Source: Escherichia coli (GTDB lineage Bacteria; Pseudomonadota; Gammaproteobacteria; Enterobacterales; Enterobacteriaceae). Taken from it: a stretch of 64,000 bases of DNA. A model generated the notes under the pieces. That model ran no database searches, was not told the DNA's origin, and saw only the letters and a program-made list of their open reading frames with translations. Below are positions 16,238-55,560 of this stretch, piece by piece; position 1 is the stretch's first letter, and each line of letters starts with the position of its first letter. Made by a program: the position numbers and the translations under genes. The stretch is from assembly GCF_016026235.1 (NCBI RefSeq), contig NZ_CP065613.1; one strand, written 5' to 3'.

Positions 16238-16367
16238 AGTGTGGTAGAATATCAGCTTACTATTGCTTTACGAAAGCGTATCCGGTGAAATAAAGTCAAC
16301 CTTTAGTTGGTTAATGTTACACCAACAACGAAACCAACACGCCAGGCTTATTCCTGTGGAGTTATAT

Positions 16368-16697
16368 ATGAGCGATAAAATTATTCACCTGACTGACGAC
16401 AGTTTTGACACGGATGTACTCAAAGCGGACGGGGCGATCCTCGTCGATTTCTGGGCAGAGTGGTGCGGTCCGTGCAAAATGATCGCCCCGATTCTGGATG
16501 AAATCGCTGACGAATATCAGGGCAAACTGACCGTTGCAAAACTGAACATCGATCAAAACCCTGGCACTGCGCCGAAATATGGCATCCGTGGTATCCCGAC
16601 TCTGCTGCTGTTCAAAAACGGTGAAGTGGCGGCAACCAAAGTGGGCGCACTGTCTAAAGGTCAGTTGAAAGAGTTCCTCGACGCTAACCTGGCGTAA
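16368..16697 (+). CDS. trxA: thioredoxin 1
   Basis: ATG at 16368 inside track ORF; [37 protein letters not shown] (WCGPC active site), 109 aa. Confidence 0.97.
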
Positions 16698-32981: not shown

Positions 32982-33058
<77 letters not shown>

Positions 33059-33115
33059 TTTAGTCCCGGCGCTTGAGCTGCGGTGGTAGTAATACCGCGT
33101 AACAAGATTTGTAGT

Positions 33116-33192
33116 GGTGGCTATAGCTCAGTTGGTAGAGCCCTGGATTGTGATTCCAGTTGTCGTGGGTTCGAATCCCATTAGCCACCCCA
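33116..33192 (+). tRNA. hisR: tRNA-His (anticodon GTG)
   Basis: GGTGGCTATAGCTCAGTTGGTAGAGC...TTAGCCACCCCA, including the extra 5' G typical of tRNA-His. Confidence 0.95.
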
Positions 33193-33212
33193 TTATTAGA
33201 AGTTGTGACAAT

Positions 33213-33299
33213 GCGAAGGTGGCGGAATTGGTAGACGCGCTAGCTTCAGGTGTTAGTGTCCTTACGGACGTGGGGGTTCAAGTCCCCCCCCTCGCACCA
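33213..33299 (+). tRNA. leuT: tRNA-Leu (anticodon CAG)
   Basis: 87-nt long-variable-arm tRNA GCGAAGGTGGCGGAATTGGTAGACGCGCTAGCTTCAGG...CTCGCACCA. Confidence 0.95.
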
Positions 33300-33341
33300 C
33301 GACTTTAAAGAATTGAACTAAAAATTCAAAAAGCAGTATTT

Positions 33342-33418
33342 CGGCGAGTAGCGCAGCTTGGTAGCGCAACTGGTTTGGGACCAGTGGGTCGGAGGTTCGA
33401 ATCCTCTCTCGCCGACCA
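33342..33418 (+). tRNA. proM: tRNA-Pro (anticodon TGG)
   Basis: CGGCGAGTAGCGCAGCTTGGTAGCGCAACTGGTTTGGGACCAG...CTCGCCGACCA. Confidence 0.95.
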
Positions 33419-35468: not shown

Positions 35469-35676
35469 GGTAGATGCTCATTCCATCTCTTATGTTCGCC
35501 TTAGTGCCTCATAAACTCCGGAATGACGCAGAGCCGTTTACGGTGCTTATCGTCCACTGACAGATGTCGCTTATGCCTCATCAGACACCATGGACACAAC
35601 GTTGAGTGAAGCACCCACTTGTTGTCATACAGACCTGTTTTAACGCCTGCTCCGTAATAAGAGCAGGCGTTTTTTT
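35469..35676 (+). ncRNA. glmZ: GlmZ small RNA (activator of glmS translation)
   Basis: GTAGATGCTCATTCCATCTCTTATGTTCGCC... through terminator hairpin GCCTGCTCCGTAATAAGAGCAGGCG + T7; matches recalled GlmZ sequence and its position upstream of hemY. Confidence 0.85.
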
Positions 35677-49842: not shown

Positions 49843-51268
49843 TAATGCCGATCAGTTAAGGATCAGTTGACCGATCCAGTGGCTGTGTAAGAATCCGGAA
49901 ACGCTCACTTGTTTCCGGATTTTTTTATGCACATTGGACAGGCTCTTGATCTGGTATCCCGTTACGATTCTCTGCGTAACCCACTGACTTCTCTGGGGGA
50001 TTACCTCGACCCCGAACTCATCTCTCGTTGCCTTGCCGAATCAGGTACTGTAACGCTACGCAAGCGCCGTCTTCCCCTCGAAATGATGGTCTGGTGTATT
50101 GTTGGCATGGCGCTTGAGCGTAAAGAACCTCTTCACCAGATTGTGAATCGCCTGGACATCATGCTGCCGGGCAATCGCCCCTTCGTTGCCCCCAGTGCCG
50201 TTATTCAGGCCCGCCAGCGCCTGGGAAGTGAGGCTGTCCGCCGCGTGTTCACGAAAACAGCGCAGCTCTGGCATAACGCCACGCCGCATCCGCACTGGTG
50301 CGGCCTGACCCTGCTGGCCATCGATGGTGTGTTCTGGCGCACACCGGATACACCAGAGAACGATGCAGCCTTCCCCCGCCAGACACATGCCGGGAACCCG
50401 GCGCTCTACCCGCAGGTCAAAATGGTCTGCCAGATGGAACTGACCAGCCATCTGCTGACGGCTGCAGCCTTCGGCACGATGAAGAACAGCGAAAATGAGC
50501 TTGCTGAGCAACTTATAGAACAAACCGGCGATAACACTCTGACGTTAATGGATAAAGGTTATTACTCACTGGGACTGTTAAATGCCTGGAGCCTGGCGGG
50601 AGAACACCGCCACTGGATGATACCTCTCAGAAAGGGAGCGCAATATGAAGAGCTCAGAAAACTGGGTAAAGGCGATCATCTGGTGAAGCTGAAAACCAGC
50701 CCGCAGGCACGAAAAAAGTGGCCGGGACTGGGAAATGAAGTGACAGCCCGCCTGCTGACCGTGACGCGCAAAGGAAAAGTCTGCCATCTGCTGACGTCGA
50801 TGACGGACGCCATGCGCTTCCCCGGAGGAGAAATGGCGGATCTGTACAGTCATCGCTGGGAAATCGAACTGGGATACAGGGAGATAAAACAGACGATGCA
50901 ACTGAGCAGGCTGACGCTGAGAAGTAAAAAGCCGGAGCTTGTGGAGCAAGAGCTGTGGGGTGTCTTACTGGCTTATAATCTGGTGAGATATCAGATGATT
51001 AAAATGGCGGAACATCTGAAAGGTTACTGGCCGAATCAACTGAGTTTCTCAGAATCATGCGGAATGGTGATGAGAATGCTGATGACATTGCAGGGCGCTT
51101 CACCGGGACGTATACCGGAGCTGATGCGCGATCTTGCAAGTATGGGACAACTTGTGAAATTACCGACGAGAAGGGGAAGGGCCTTCCCGAGAGTGGTAAA
51201 GGAGAGGCCCTGGAAATACCCCACAGCCCCGAAAAAGAGCCAGTCAGTTGCTTAACTGACTGGCATTA
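49843..51268 (+). mobile_element. IS4 insertion sequence (1426 bp)
   Basis: Terminal inverted repeats TAATGCCGATCAGTTAAG / CTTAACTGACTGGCATTA; perfect 12-bp direct repeat CACCTTCTGCTG at 49831-49842 and 51269-51280. Confidence 0.93.
49927..51255 (+). CDS. insG: IS4 transposase
   Basis: [34 protein letters not shown]... (442 aa, DDE type) inside track ORF 49909..51255. Confidence 0.93.
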
Positions 51269-51604
51269 CACCTTCTGCTGACCGTTTTCGATGTACAAAC
51301 CGAGCGGCGCATAGCTTTCATCATAGATGCCGCCGTTCATCGCCATCTGCACCTGACCCTGACTATTCATATCCGCCAGCAGAGCATGTAACGTTCCCCA
51401 CGCTTCGCCATTAGCTTTTTGCCAGTACATTTTCACCCGCTCTGTTTGAGGATTAACGGTATACGCCTGTACGGTCAGCGTCGGATCTGAGAGTGCGCAA
51501 TCATCAGCGGCAACAGCAAACAAGGGAAGTAAGGTGAGGGTGAGAAAAATCTGTTTGAGATTCAAGGTGATCATTCCTTTACCAATGAGTAGCCGATGCG
51601 CCAT
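51266..51604 (-). pseudogene. yigE: yigE N-terminal fragment (signal peptide + first ~110 codons)
   Basis: Track ORF MAHRLLIGKGMITLNLKQIFLTLTLLPLFAVAADDCALS...; stops two codons into the IS4 end. Confidence 0.8.
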
Positions 51605-51973: not shown

Positions 51974-52924
51974 ATGCTGAGCGCATTTCAACTGGAAAAT
52001 AACCGACTGACCCGGCTGGAAGTCGAAGAGTCACAACCCCTTGTAAATGCAGTATGGATTGATCTTGTCGAACCGGACGACGACGAGCGACTGCGCGTAC
52101 AATCTGAACTTGGCCAGAGCCTGGCAACCCGCCCGGAACTGGAAGACATCGAAGCATCGGCACGTTTCTTTGAAGACGACGACGGCCTGCATATTCACTC
52201 CTTCTTCTTCTTTGAAGATGCGGAAGATCACGCCGGTAACTCCACTGTGGCATTTACCATCCGTGATGGTCGTCTGTTTACTCTGCGTGAGCGTGAACTG
52301 CCCGCTTTTCGTCTGTATCGTATGCGTGCCCGTAGCCAGTCGATGGTAGACGGTAACGCCTACGAGCTGCTGCTGGATCTGTTCGAAACCAAAATCGAAC
52401 AGTTGGCAGATGAAATTGAAAATATCTATAGCGACCTGGAGCAGTTGAGCCGGGTGATTATGGAAGGGCATCAGGGCGATGAGTACGACGAGGCGCTCTC
52501 CACTCTGGCGGAACTGGAAGATATCGGCTGGAAAGTTCGCCTGTGTCTGATGGATACCCAGCGCGCGCTCAACTTCCTGGTGCGTAAAGCGCGTTTACCG
52601 GGTGGGCAACTGGAGCAGGCGCGTGAAATCCTGCGAGATATCGAATCCCTGCTGCCGCATAACGAATCCCTGTTCCAGAAGGTGAACTTCCTGATGCAGG
52701 CGGCGATGGGTTTTATCAACATCGAGCAGAACCGCATCATCAAAATCTTCTCGGTGGTATCCGTGGTATTCCTGCCGCCGACGCTCGTTGCTTCCAGCTA
52801 TGGGATGAACTTTGAGTTTATGCCAGAACTGAAGTGGAGTTTCGGCTACCCAGGCGCGATTATCTTTATGATCCTCGCGGGCCTGGCACCGTATCTGTAC
52901 TTTAAGCGCAAGAACTGGCTGTAA
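51974..52924 (+). CDS. corA: Mg2+/Co2+ transporter CorA
   Basis: ATG at 51974 inside track ORF 51959..52924; [20 protein letters not shown]...; GMN motif and C-terminal TM pair; 316 aa. Confidence 0.95.
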
Positions 52925-52931
52925 TATGAGT

Positions 52932-52968
52932 GCCGGATAAAGCTATTTTTTTATCCGGCTTATTTCTA
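52932..52968. terminator. bidirectional hairpin terminator (corA / downstream cassette)
   Basis: GCCGGATAAAGCTATTTTTTTATCCGGC followed by T-rich tract; sits between corA stop and the stop of the 159-aa minus-strand ORF. Confidence 0.7.
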
Positions 52969-52977
52969 AAAATTGTC

Positions 52978-53457
52978 TTATTTAAAGTCATGCGGATTGA
53001 AAACTCGCTCTATTTTATTTTCTTGTGTTAATTGATACTCAGTAAAATCGTTAATACCAATATGAGTGTTACGATAAGGGTATTCATTAATAACCATTAA
53101 GTAATTTTTCACGATGCAATTATCATTGCTCTTAATTGTCGGGAAACAGTAGAGATCTTCATACGGCCCTTCGATATATTTTTTATAGTCAGTGAAGCCA
53201 TTACCGATATCAATGACATACCAGGTATGCCAACTACCTTCTGGTAGGGGATGTTGATTTTTAATTTCATTCTGATGCTTCAGATACCAATTTATTTTAT
53301 CGCTGTCAGTCCATGGCAGATGATCAACGACCAGAAAGACTGAATTGCCAGCATCAGAGTATGTATACAAAATCTGTACAGGACGCAATGTCCATAAATT
53401 ATAGATGCAGCATAGAAGAAATAAACATAATATAATTTTCTGGAGTTTGCTTTTCAT
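52978..53457 (-). CDS. hypothetical signal-anchored/exported protein (159 aa), second gene of corA-adjacent cassette
   Basis: Track ORF; N-terminal hydrophobic segment MKSKLQKIILCLFLLCCIYNLW; start overlaps upstream ORF stop (ATGA at 53454-53457); AT-rich codon usage. Confidence 0.7.
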   Translation of the reverse strand: MKSKLQKIILCLFLLCCIYNLWTLRPVQILYTYSDAGNSVFLVVDHLPWTDSDKINWYLKHQNEIKNQHPLPEGSWHTWYVIDIGNGFTDYKKYIEGPYEDLYCFPTIKSNDNCIVKNYLMVINEYPYRNTHIGINDFTEYQLTQENKIERVFNPHDFK

Positions 53458-54308
53458 AGATAATTTTCGATTCTTTCGATAGTGTTAAAATTGGTGAAAA
53501 AAGGTTTGAAAGCAAAGTCTTTATGCCGTTGTAAAAAGAACCATATGCGAAAAAATCTATATTTGCTGTAAGTCTTGTTTTTGATATCAGTTACATCAAG
53601 ACCGAAGTGGTCCTGTGCTACAAAATGAATTGTTGCACTCCATCCTATAGCGTATTTTTGAAAACTTAAAAGAGATATTTTTTGAGCTGAAATATCATGA
53701 ACACTGATTCCTAAGCCATTAAAACTGTCCTCGAAGTCATTAAATTTATTTAGTCTTGATGAAAGTAATTTGGTTTTAATGCTTTGCAGGATAAGAGGTT
53801 GGTATCCTGTCGAGGGAGTTGAATTAATGCCATTTTCGATACATTCTTTGATTATTCGTATTGGACTATTATAACCATATTTATTTATTTTTTCATGAAA
53901 AGATAAATTTAATTGTTGGCTATGAAAATTGCTGCCATTTCCATATCTAAAATGTTCAATCAGATCTTCGATAAGTGTTTTATATTGTCCAAAAAAGGAA
54001 AGCATTTTTGCTAGTTCTTTCATTTCTGCAAATAAAATATCAGTGCATTCACGTTGTGATATTTTTGTTCCGGAACTTGAGGCACTAAAAGCAACATTAA
54101 TAGAACCTGGGCCAGGGAAATGGTATTTAATAAGTCTGTAAGGATCAACTTTTGCTGAGATATCGCTTAGGCCGAGTGAGAGAAAGTCTTGTTCTACCAT
54201 ATCACCATATTGCATATCATCAGCAGAAAAATCATCGAATAAACTAATAGTTTCGAAAAGTGTACAGGGAATATTAATTGGCGGAAGTAATATGTTATTC
54301 ATTTGCAT
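53454..54308 (-). CDS. hypothetical protein (284 aa), first gene of corA-adjacent cassette
   Basis: Track ORF MQMNNILLPPINIPCTLFETISLFDDFSADDMQYGDMVEQDF...; no TM segment or catalytic motif I can assign by eye; AT-rich. Confidence 0.7.
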   Translation of the reverse strand: MQMNNILLPPINIPCTLFETISLFDDFSADDMQYGDMVEQDFLSLGLSDISAKVDPYRLIKYHFPGPGSINVAFSASSSGTKISQRECTDILFAEMKELAKMLSFFGQYKTLIEDLIEHFRYGNGSNFHSQQLNLSFHEKINKYGYNSPIRIIKECIENGINSTPSTGYQPLILQSIKTKLLSSRLNKFNDFEDSFNGLGISVHDISAQKISLLSFQKYAIGWSATIHFVAQDHFGLDVTDIKNKTYSKYRFFRIWFFLQRHKDFAFKPFFTNFNTIERIENYL

Positions 54309-54498
54309 TTGCCTTGGTTATATTTAAGCTCAATATCAATTCGAGAACAAATGCTAGGGTAAAAAAATATTTAAAAAAGAAGTACACTTCACATTTTTTC
54401 ATTACATCTCTGAAGAGAACCTCGTTAATGATTGGTCTTGCTCATTGTTAATAACAAAATGTTGAATTTACCGATTAGGAAACTTTTTCCTACGCGGA

Positions 54499-54635
54499 TT
54501 GCCTCCAGTTCTGGCATGAACTTTGAGTTTATGCCAGAACTGAAGTGGGGCTTCGGCTACCCTGGCGCGATTATCTTTATGATCCTCGCGGGCCTGACAC
54601 CGTATCTGTACTTTAAGCGTAAGAACTGGCTGTAA
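54499..54635 (+). pseudogene. diverged duplicate of the corA 3' end (last ~45 codons + stop)
   Basis: ~137 bp alignable by eye to 52788-52924 with roughly ten mismatches; encodes ...[40 protein letters not shown]; track ORF 54432..54635 extends it to an upstream ATG. Confidence 0.85.
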
Positions 54636-54659: not shown

Positions 54660-55046
54660 TTAGTGTGCTGACAGCGACATTTTAGCCGAGGGAATCGCAG
54701 ATAACATAATTGTTGTGAATAATATCCATGCCACGTTGAGTTGGACGCTTAATGACTCACATCTCACCCCTTCAATTGCTGCAGAGATAATAGAAAAAAG
54801 TGTCAAACCCAATGAAATCAATACAAAGTAGATTGCCTTACATCCAGTATCTCTTATTCTTTTTGCTCCAATATTGATATTTACATAGGTATTATTAATA
54901 ACCAGAATAAAACTCAAAGCCAGGTTGATATCATTCAAAGTTATTAATATTGACCATGATGTTAATGTATAGATTATGAACTGAAAGCGTGATAAACGCT
55001 CAAGCCTGGATGGGTAGAATATATTTCTGATGGATGATTTGAACAT
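54660..55046 (-). CDS. hypothetical small inner-membrane protein (128 aa); yigF position by synteny
   Basis: Track ORF with at least three hydrophobic segments; AT-rich; lies between corA region and rarD where K-12 carries yigF/yigG. Identity not verified. Confidence 0.6.
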   Translation of the reverse strand: MFKSSIRNIFYPSRLERLSRFQFIIYTLTSWSILITLNDINLALSFILVINNTYVNINIGAKRIRDTGCKAIYFVLISLGLTLFSIISAAIEGVRCESLSVQLNVAWILFTTIMLSAIPSAKMSLSAH

Positions 55047-55245: not shown

Positions 55246-55560
55246 GTGAATGGATTCTATATGGGAAATGGTAACTTTTGGCAGTTGTTCTTGGGTAAAG
55301 AACCTTACAGCAAAAAATCTTATTTTGTTAAGGCATGGTTATTGTGGTGGGCTATTACCATCCTTGTTCTATTTATTTTAAGCCTGACTACGACATTAAA
55401 TTTAAGAAGTATAGGTATAGGGTTAAGTTTTGGGTTTTGTCAAATTCTTGGTAGATATACGATGTCTCTAGGATGGAGTAAGTACTGGGGAGTTTTGGGG
55501 GTATTTCCTGTAACAAATATTGTTCTTTTTCTTATCTTAATTTTTTTCAAAAAAAGATAA
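55246..55560 (+). CDS. hypothetical small membrane protein (104 aa)
   Basis: Track ORF with two clear hydrophobic helices (AWLLWWAITILVLFILSL; GVLGVFPVTNIVLFLILIFF); AT-rich; followed by hairpin GGGTAGGC...GCCTACCC. Confidence 0.5.
   Translation: MNGFYMGNGNFWQLFLGKEPYSKKSYFVKAWLLWWAITILVLFILSLTTTLNLRSIGIGLSFGFCQILGRYTMSLGWSKYWGVLGVFPVTNIVLFLILIFFKKR

Follow-up and report, generated by a model that had tools for sequence, protein, structure and literature searches.

Organization of the locus

The window, that is, the whole stretch of Escherichia coli DNA analysed here (64,000 nucleotides), holds the genes uvrD, yigE (interrupted by IS4), corA, rarD, yigI, pldA and recQ in this order, with a two-gene cassette placed between corA and rarD. 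The cassette is AT-rich, the GC fraction from 52925 to 54431 being 0.32 against 0.52 in the whole window. Its two genes, here called the toxin gene and the immunity gene after the role of their homologues, are listed with the bordering features in Table 1. Rfam landmarks elsewhere in the window are of ordinary core-chromosome kinds.

Table 1. Features of the cassette and of its borders, in window coordinates
Feature	Position	Strand	Basis
Left copy of the 147-nt direct repeat; functional corA 3' end	52778..52924	+	Repeat search, alignment
GC-rich hairpin separating corA from DUF943 (convergent genes)	52932..52959	.	Terminator scan
DUF943 immunity gene, 159 aa	52978..53457	-	ORF list and PF06092 match
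ATGA overlap (toxin TGA stop / DUF943 ATG)	53454..53457	-	Sequence reading
Toxin gene, DUF3289 / YPO3983 family (effector)	53454..54308	-	ORF list; 284 aa from first ATG
Upstream non-coding region of the operon	54309..54488	-	Shared with the B2-type allele; blastn homology ends at 54488
Right copy of the 147-nt direct repeat; displaced corA 3'-end pseudo-fragment	54489..54635	+	Repeat search, alignment; far cassette boundary

The first-pass annotation had described a 284-aa open reading frame whose stop codon overlaps the start codon of a downstream gene. The frame was recovered on the minus strand in the ORF list, and the junction with the 159-aa frame, which reads TATCTATGAAAAGC, contains the ATGA that had been claimed. 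The same overlap occurs in Salmonella, in Enterobacter and in PAAR-fused loci, and it is consistent with translational coupling of the toxin and immunity genes. Two other details of that annotation had to be revised. It took the first ATG as the start of the toxin, and the more probable initiation codon is the second one, at 54302, giving 282 aa: PGAP uses that codon on an identical locus, for which RefSeq gives a 282-aa product (WP_001059703.1), and in the B2-type allele (UPEC132) the upstream ATG is absent and a strong AAGGAG precedes the second-ATG codon. It also placed the native promoter at 54309-54431; a consensus scan detected no sigma-70-like site either there or in the whole of the conserved upstream region, which reaches 54488. 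At the other end of the operon, the hairpin between the two convergent genes is probably a bidirectional terminator.

The two copies of the 147-nt repeat that bound the cassette are 91% identical, and RefSeq annotates the right copy as a partial CorA pseudogene. The corA-rarD interval was found in at least four states. With E for the toxin gene, I for the immunity gene and corA' for the pseudo-fragment, these are corA-yigF-yigG-rarD in K-12 and ST131 (state 1); corA-I-E-corA'-yigF-yigG-rarD in BL21 (state 2); corA-I-E-corA'-o128-o104-rarD in the window and 1432 genomes (state 3); and corA-I-E-rarD, devoid of the repeat, in UPEC132 and Salmonella (state 4). What BL21 has beyond K-12 at corA-rarD is precisely one copy of the repeat and the cassette. 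These arrangements are most simply explained by gain or loss of the cassette through recombination within the corA 3' end, for which the repeat would provide a simple route in both directions. Among the sampled matches there was no cassette-free empty site with the o128/o104 downstream genes.

The toxin belongs to the DUF3289 family

The product of the toxin gene had been regarded in the first-pass annotation as a cytoplasmic protein of unknown family, with a DUF3289 plus DUF943 pairing offered as a guess and with profile searches and structure prediction suggested as checks. The guess was right for both proteins, as profile searches and the RefSeq annotation of identical loci agree, and the family is not an unknown one, since DUF3289 has already been characterised in the literature. 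In the Pfam search practically the whole toxin matches DUF3289 (PF11692), with an E value of 1.7e-83 and coverage of model positions 2-270 of 272, this being the only domain found in it; the match to NCBIfam TIGR03034, the YPO3983 family, scores 436.6 bits against a cut-off of 156.45 and covers positions 1-274 of 274. Identical loci in RefSeq carry the labels 'YPO3983 family protein' and 'DUF943 family protein' for the two genes.

To define the conserved positions, the toxin was aligned with 52 diverse relatives (53 sequences in all), drawn from an exhaustive HMMER search (463 matches) and from a search for closer relatives. Residues H234, F235, G236, D241, F253, W256, L259, Q260, P269 and F270 are invariant in the 53 sequences, and D31, G35, D36, H204, D205, D233, L237 and D238 are nearly so. 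All the family motifs, namely DM..GD near the N-terminus, HD, DHFGLDxxD, FRxWFxLQ and KPF, are present in the toxin. The conserved acidic and histidine cluster formed by D31, D36, H204-D205, D233-H234, D238 and D241 is the probable active site.

Structure comparison led to the same family. Three PDB entries (9JDI, 9JG8 and 9JG9) are designated 'DUF3289 family protein', and 9JDI is described there as the T6SS effector-immunity complex BtpeA-CTD/BtpiA of Bacteroides fragilis. A search of the PDB with the toxin alone gave a C-terminal match only, to 9JDI and 9JG8, and a search with the DUF3289 family profile matched most of the domain. The models of the toxin and of the DUF943 protein match in fold the effector and the immunity chain of 9JDI, respectively; the toxin thus has the fold of a solved member of the DUF3289 family. 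The study behind the BtpeA/BtpiA structures is that of Li et al. (Cell Host Microbe 33:1901, published in 2025), which is cited in PMC13402684.

No stretch of the toxin reaches the hydrophobicity of a transmembrane segment, the best 19-residue Kyte-Doolittle window being 1.44, and on inspection its N-terminus does not resemble a signal peptide, in line with what the first-pass annotation had stated. The term 'cytoplasmic' holds for the site of synthesis. It does not hold for the site of action, as the homologues act in the periplasm of the target cell.

The DUF943 protein

The 159-aa protein matches DUF943 (PF06092) with an E value of 1.7e-26 over positions 1-150 of 151. Its single hydrophobic helix is N-terminal (residues ~8-26, Kyte-Doolittle peak 1.79), which agrees with the signal-anchored protein predicted at first, and the AF2 model contains an N-terminal helix from residue 2 to 24. 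The protein is therefore modelled as an N-terminal transmembrane anchor (residues ~2-24) followed by a putative periplasmic alpha/beta domain, in which the pair Cys104/Cys114 is kept in at least 90% of the sequences. The two genes show the combination looked for in T6SS effector-immunity pairs, that is, a toxin without Sec or Tat signal and, downstream, an immunity gene whose product is predicted to be targeted to the compartment in which the toxin acts.

Distribution and evolution

The cassette is present in 2636 of 5426 complete E. coli genomes (coverage of at least 80%), always on the chromosome and adjoining corA, and its carriers include O157:H7, O104:H4, UPEC and Nissle-type strains as well as BL21. 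Compared with the window, cassette DNA occurs as alleles of ~99% identity in many B1/A-type strains, of 98-99% in O157:H7, of ~91.5%, and of ~89% in UPEC, Nissle, 536 and LF82. Homologues are present in Salmonella enterica subspecies houtenae, arizonae, diarizonae and salamae. In the one Salmonella locus examined the pair occupies the same corA-rarD interval as in E. coli, and the amino acid identity between E. coli and Salmonella is 64% for the toxin and 65% for the immunity protein, compared with 97.5% for CorA and 89% for RarD. In an Enterobacter strain, such pairs are arranged in tandem and are found at another locus.

Between the window and the B2 allele the toxin differs at 43 of its 282 residues, with a dN/dS of 0.18 for the gene, and dS amounts to 0.44 in the toxin gene, 0.11 in corA and 0.13 in the immunity gene. 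At the protein level the E. coli alleles share 93% of the amino acids of the immunity protein and 85% of those of the toxin. Judged from its dN/dS, the toxin gene is under purifying selection, and judged from the identities between E. coli and Salmonella it evolves fast relative to its neighbours; the dN/dS and dS values point to a functional gene with old allelic lineages that are probably recombining. The same dN/dS, along with the Pfam and TIGR03034 matches, indicates that the toxin frame is not a chance one.

Links of the family to T6SS

Relatives of the pair have been studied in other genera. The PAAR-DUF3289 protein of Yersinia pseudotuberculosis, which comes from a T6SS operon, kills E. 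coli BL21 only if it is directed to the periplasm, where it brings about cell rounding (Geller et al. 2024, PMC11148199). Its DUF943 partner is anchored by a transmembrane segment, faces the periplasm and rescues the cells, and the same authors proposed DUF3289 as a colicin M homologue from a Foldseek match to PaeM (4G76) (PMC11148199). In Aeromonas jandaei an orphan DUF3289 protein was found in the T6SS-dependent secretome (Fridman et al. 2025, PMC12135965), and competition assays established it and the downstream gene as a true effector-immunity pair (PMC12135965). T6SS linkage has also been reported in a Klebsiella study (PMC12469244), and genomic surveys tie DUF3289 to PAAR, VgrG and PIX domains and to the Klebsiella T6SS. 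Our literature search found no experimental work on the E. coli member of the family and no papers under the names YPO3983, TIGR03034, PF11692 or PF06092.

BL21 encodes a DUF3289/DUF943 pair of its own, yet in the published experiments the Yersinia homologue was toxic to it. This points to immunity that is allele-specific or to a native pair that is not expressed.

The association with delivery genes is also seen in the sequences collected here. One genome contains an array made of a PAAR-DUF3289 gene with two DUF943 genes, a second PAAR-DUF3289 gene with one DUF943 gene, and a DUF3289 fragment with another. In a metagenomic contig a VgrG gene is followed by a gene for a 665-aa M23-DUF3289 protein and then by DUF943. 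Among 34 longer members of the family PAAR is found in 10, DUF4280 in 1 and eCIS_core in 1, and others carry a Peptidase_M23, SH3_3, PG_binding_1, Peptidase_M14, LysM or glycoside-hydrolase-like domain. Such fusion partners tie the DUF3289 domain to delivery by contractile injection and to a peptidoglycan-related target.

At the copy in the window the pair has no genetic link to a T6SS: neither a PAAR, VgrG, Hcp, Rhs or MIX-type domain was found, nor any T6SS gene among the annotated neighbours corA, rarD, yigI, pldA and uvrD. Co-occurrence in whole genomes was estimated with concatenated probes, each made of the cassette and 900 nt of tssC, and was deduced from counts of matched places rather than from per-genome tables. 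The tssC probes represented the aspV type (from O157 Sakai) and the metV type (from CFT073), with T6SS-3 outside their scope. The cassette joined to the aspV-type tssC matched 3312 genomes at 4925 places, which gives ~1613 genomes with both cassette and tssC. Thus aspV-type tssC is present in ~61% of the cassette-positive and ~24% of the cassette-negative complete genomes, figures that are uncorrected for phylogeny; in the sampled matches it accompanies the cassette in 29 of 47 genomes. There is no enrichment of the metV type (~26% of cassette-positive and ~23% of cassette-negative genomes, likewise uncorrected), though of the 11 carriers of the 89% allele that were sampled, 7 have this type. 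At least ~330 carriers (~12%, a lower bound) have neither of the two probed types. One of them is FDAARGOS_943, with a cassette 100% identical to that of the window; in BL21(DE3) the aspV type is absent, the sampled matches for this strain covering that type and not metV. These figures agree with delivery by a T6SS in the majority of carriers, and the retention of the cassette without a T6SS in a minority fits a component of immunity retained for defence or, less likely, another route.

Proposed function and alternatives

Taking into account: (i) the experiments on homologues (PMC11148199, PMC12135965); (ii) the PAAR and VgrG linkage of the relatives; and (iii) the fold matches to 9JDI, all of which favour the toxin-immunity reading raised by the first-pass annotation, we propose that the cassette is an orphan antibacterial effector-immunity module, DUF3289/DUF943, delivered by a T6SS and acting in the periplasm. 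We give this proposal a probability of about 0.7. The family of T6SS-type effectors and immunity proteins to which the pair belongs is already known. In the model, the toxin, which lacks a signal peptide, would be synthesised in the cytoplasm and would do no harm there, what it attacks being in the cell envelope. Where a strain bears a T6SS, this apparatus would most likely take the toxin up as cargo and inject it into the periplasm of Gram-negative cells nearby, where damage to the synthesis or integrity of the cell wall would lead to rounding and lysis. According to the published hypothesis, the damage would consist in cleavage of the lipid-linked peptidoglycan precursor, as by colicin M; a direct attack on peptidoglycan is the alternative. 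The co-translated DUF943 protein, anchored in the inner membrane of the producer with its domain in the periplasm, would bind and block the effector received from sister cells. Periplasmic toxicity, rescue by the immunity protein and T6SS-dependent delivery are carried over in this model from the literature on homologues, and for the E. coli orphan itself we infer both the delivery by a T6SS and the substrate.

Several other explanations deserve consideration. The module might be kept mainly for defence, the DUF943 protein protecting against the DUF3289 toxins of competitors and the toxin being an undeliverable passenger in cells devoid of a T6SS. Carriage of the cassette by genomes with neither probed tssC type, which make up at least ~12% of carriers (FDAARGOS_943 included), and by BL21 and BL21(DE3), the latter without the aspV type, would agree with it, and so would the piling up of orphan DUF943 genes in arrays elsewhere, the genomes in which only DUF943 fragments are left, and the immunity protein being better kept than the toxin between E. 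coli alleles (93% against 85% of amino acids). Against it stand a toxin gene that is intact, has a dN/dS of 0.18 and preserves every conserved motif residue, the maintained translational coupling of both genes and the enrichment of the cassette in genomes with an aspV-type T6SS; we consider this explanation unlikely. The lack of a delivery domain, in a gene that is intact, under purifying selection and kept by the carriers (at least ~12%) with neither probed type, raises the question of whether the bare DUF3289 protein at corA might be something other than a conventional T6SS cargo, either released or used independently of a T6SS or acting on the envelope of the producer under the control of DUF943, with an Asp/His cluster that could catalyse a cell-wall reaction unlike that of ColM. 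We hold this to be quite unlikely.

Still less probable, and in our opinion very unlikely, is that the protein is an enzyme that remodels the cell's own wall under the control of a membrane-bound partner, or an effector that leaves the cell by a path other than a T6SS, and that it is no interbacterial weapon in E. coli. Some family members do bear PG_binding_1, LysM, SH3_3, M23 or M14 instead of T6SS delivery domains, and the locus lies on the chromosome, has kept its synteny from E. coli to Salmonella, and persists in strains without the probed T6SSs; but the toxin has no signal peptide with which to reach the periplasm unaided, its variable presence across E. coli strains and its fast evolution are unlike those of housekeeping genes, and a homologue is lethal when directed to the periplasm. 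The abortive-infection or anti-phage alternative that the first-pass annotation had kept beside the toxin-immunity reading, in which a cytoplasmic effector would be triggered by infection and the membrane protein would be its sensor or antidote, finds no support. It appeals to the generic architecture of a two-gene, low-GC, variably present cassette, while PADLOC-DB 2.0 contains no family matching the toxin or the DUF943 protein at E <= 1, both proteins match a solved T6SS effector-immunity complex, and the relatives are PAAR-fused or adjoin VgrG and have published phenotypes that are interbacterial. This alternative is extremely improbable.

A classical cytoplasmic toxin-antitoxin system was also considered and is unlikely, the homologue being toxic only in the periplasm and the antidote facing the periplasm. 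Nor is a housekeeping role in keeping with genes that some strains have and others lack and that evolve fast.

The T6SS effector-immunity reading would make the pair a common accessory module for competition, present in about half of the complete E. coli genomes, and the identification of the family guards against its description as a novel toxin-antitoxin or defence system.

Comparison with known systems

The colicin M family (ColM, PaeM, pectocins M1/M2 and syringacin M) consists of bacteriocins that are lipid II-cleaving phosphodiesterases, with Cmi as immunity protein. Our searches give little sign of kinship between it and the toxin. No match to Colicin_M (PF14859) was obtained with the toxin in the Pfam search and no ColM-family chain with the DUF3289 profile in the PDB at E <= 10. 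The hhalign comparison of the DUF3289 profile with an alignment of the ColM catalytic domain, seeded with a ColM sequence checked to be identical to 2XMX, returned a probability of 0.24%. The ColM catalytic motif DxYDx5HR is absent from the toxin, also in a relaxed form of the regular expression, and no Cmi-like structure appears among the best 60 matches of the DUF943 model. Unlike colicin M, the toxin has neither a TonB-box nor FhuA-binding import domains, and by analogy with its homologues it would be delivered by injection, whereas colicin M enters by receptor-mediated uptake. The analogy with colicin M is therefore weak for the E. coli toxin. Action in the periplasm on a cell-wall pathway is well supported; cleavage of lipid II in the manner of colicin M is a conceivable hypothesis that we rate somewhat below an even chance, with direct hydrolysis of peptidoglycan or another envelope target as alternatives. 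The label 'colicin M homologue' given to the DUF3289 family derives from a weak fold resemblance, so that the enzymatic activity is putative.

The BtpeA/BtpiA pair of Bacteroides fragilis shares fold with the E. coli pair; in sequence, the two toxins are just 17-21% identical and the two immunity proteins 10%. In the profile comparison the match between toxin and BtpeA begins at about residue 74, the first ~75 residues being unmatched. BtpeA also differs in having 608 aa and a dedicated adaptor.

Closer to the E. coli pair is T6EC1/T6IC1 of Yersinia pseudotuberculosis IP32881, in which both Pfam families recur with an identical gene order (PMC11148199). In both, the immunity gene lies immediately 3' of the toxin gene and its product has an N-terminal transmembrane helix and faces the periplasm, which is the predicted site of action. 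The E. coli toxin differs in being a bare DUF3289 domain at a housekeeping locus, corA-rarD, without a nearby T6SS gene. In that respect it resembles the orphan DUF3289 protein of Aeromonas jandaei DSM 7311 (WP_042032936.1), which is likewise encoded apart from T6SS genes with its immunity gene directly downstream (PMC12135965). [quoted passage not shown] The Aeromonas case means that orphan members of the DUF3289 family can be true T6SS cargo.

The cassette boundary at the corA 3′ end

The DUF3289 toxin gene and its adjacent DUF943 immunity gene are placed between two direct copies of the corA 3′ end, which are 91% identical and lie one on each side of the cassette (table). Considering that (i) the cassette is flanked by this repeat; (ii) adding the cassette and one copy of the repeat to the K-12 arrangement gives that of BL21, and (iii) UPEC132 and Salmonella carry the cassette without the repeat, the comparison suggests that the cassette was gained or lost via recombination within the corA 3′ end. 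A few E. coli genomes, among them NZ_CP128979.1 and NZ_CP063473.1, retain beside corA only 154-217 bp from the DUF943 3′ end, apparently the trace of a decayed cassette.

Between the corA fragment and rarD, two small and very AT-rich ORFs for membrane proteins occupy the place of K-12 yigF-yigG. The 128-aa ORF, which bears no annotation in the RefSeq locus of FDAARGOS_943, identical in sequence, is YigG-like at 29% identity (blastp E 3e-6) with a weak match to NF008474, and the 104-aa ORF between the corA fragment and rarD gave no family match. This two-ORF arrangement in place of yigF-yigG is present in 1432 genomes, with the cassette in all rows sampled.

Upstream of corA, yigE is broken in the window by an IS4 element. 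Among the complete-genome matches listed, only strain 401651 matched over the whole IS4/yigE region (99.0%); two further genomes, at about 85% coverage, kept IS4, and it is absent from the remaining matches listed. Regarding uvrD-corA, trxA and glmZ lie upstream. The Rfam landmarks of the window are all ordinary, consistent with a conserved stretch of the E. coli core chromosome.

Features of the window around and outside the cassette
Feature	Position in window	Strand	Remark
Rev39 5′UTR element	898-1187		Rfam
TrxA 5′UTR thermometer	16298-16397		Rfam
Four-tRNA cluster	32982-33415		Rfam
GlmZ sRNA	35470-35676		Rfam
IS4 transposase	49909-51255		NCBIfam transpos_IS4_1, E 1.5e-90
yigE remnant	51266-51604		
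corA 3′-end repeat, left copy	52778-52924		147 nt
corA 3′-end repeat, right copy	54489-54635		147 nt
Small membrane-protein ORF	54660-55046	-	
Small membrane-protein ORF	55246-55560	+	

Divergence of the toxin and possible specificity of immunity

Compared with B2-type alleles, the toxin gene of the window reaches a dS of 0.44 (53457-54302 against 3653-4498 of the UPEC132 locus), whereas the adjacent immunity gene (0.13) and corA (0.11) are far closer. Judged from these values the locus looks mosaic, in that an old toxin allele lineage would be lodged inside a younger flank. The profile match of the toxin to the C-terminal domain of the Bacteroides effector BtpeA begins near residue 74 and leaves the first ~80 residues uncovered. 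Within residues 1-84 (window 54057-54308) lies a DM..GD motif (D31, G35, D36), conserved in nearly all of the 53 aligned sequences of the toxin and its relatives; this region may contribute to the active site or serve as a loading module.

An intact DUF3289/DUF943 pair, sharing ~98.5% DNA identity with the window, is native to BL21 and BL21(DE3) (1167-2503 of the BL21 locus, NZ_CP170101.1), and no aspV-type tssC was found in BL21(DE3). BL21 was also the host in which toxicity of a Yersinia DUF3289 homologue was assayed (PMC11148199). Evidently, the DUF943 protein of BL21 itself gave no protection from that homologue, which suggests that it is allele-specific or unexpressed.

Relation to known arrays

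At 5632-10682 of a related locus (GCA_041200025.1), two PAAR-DUF3289 genes, one DUF3289 fragment and four DUF943 genes form an array, which looks like the effector/orphan-immunity arrays of Rhs and CDI loci.
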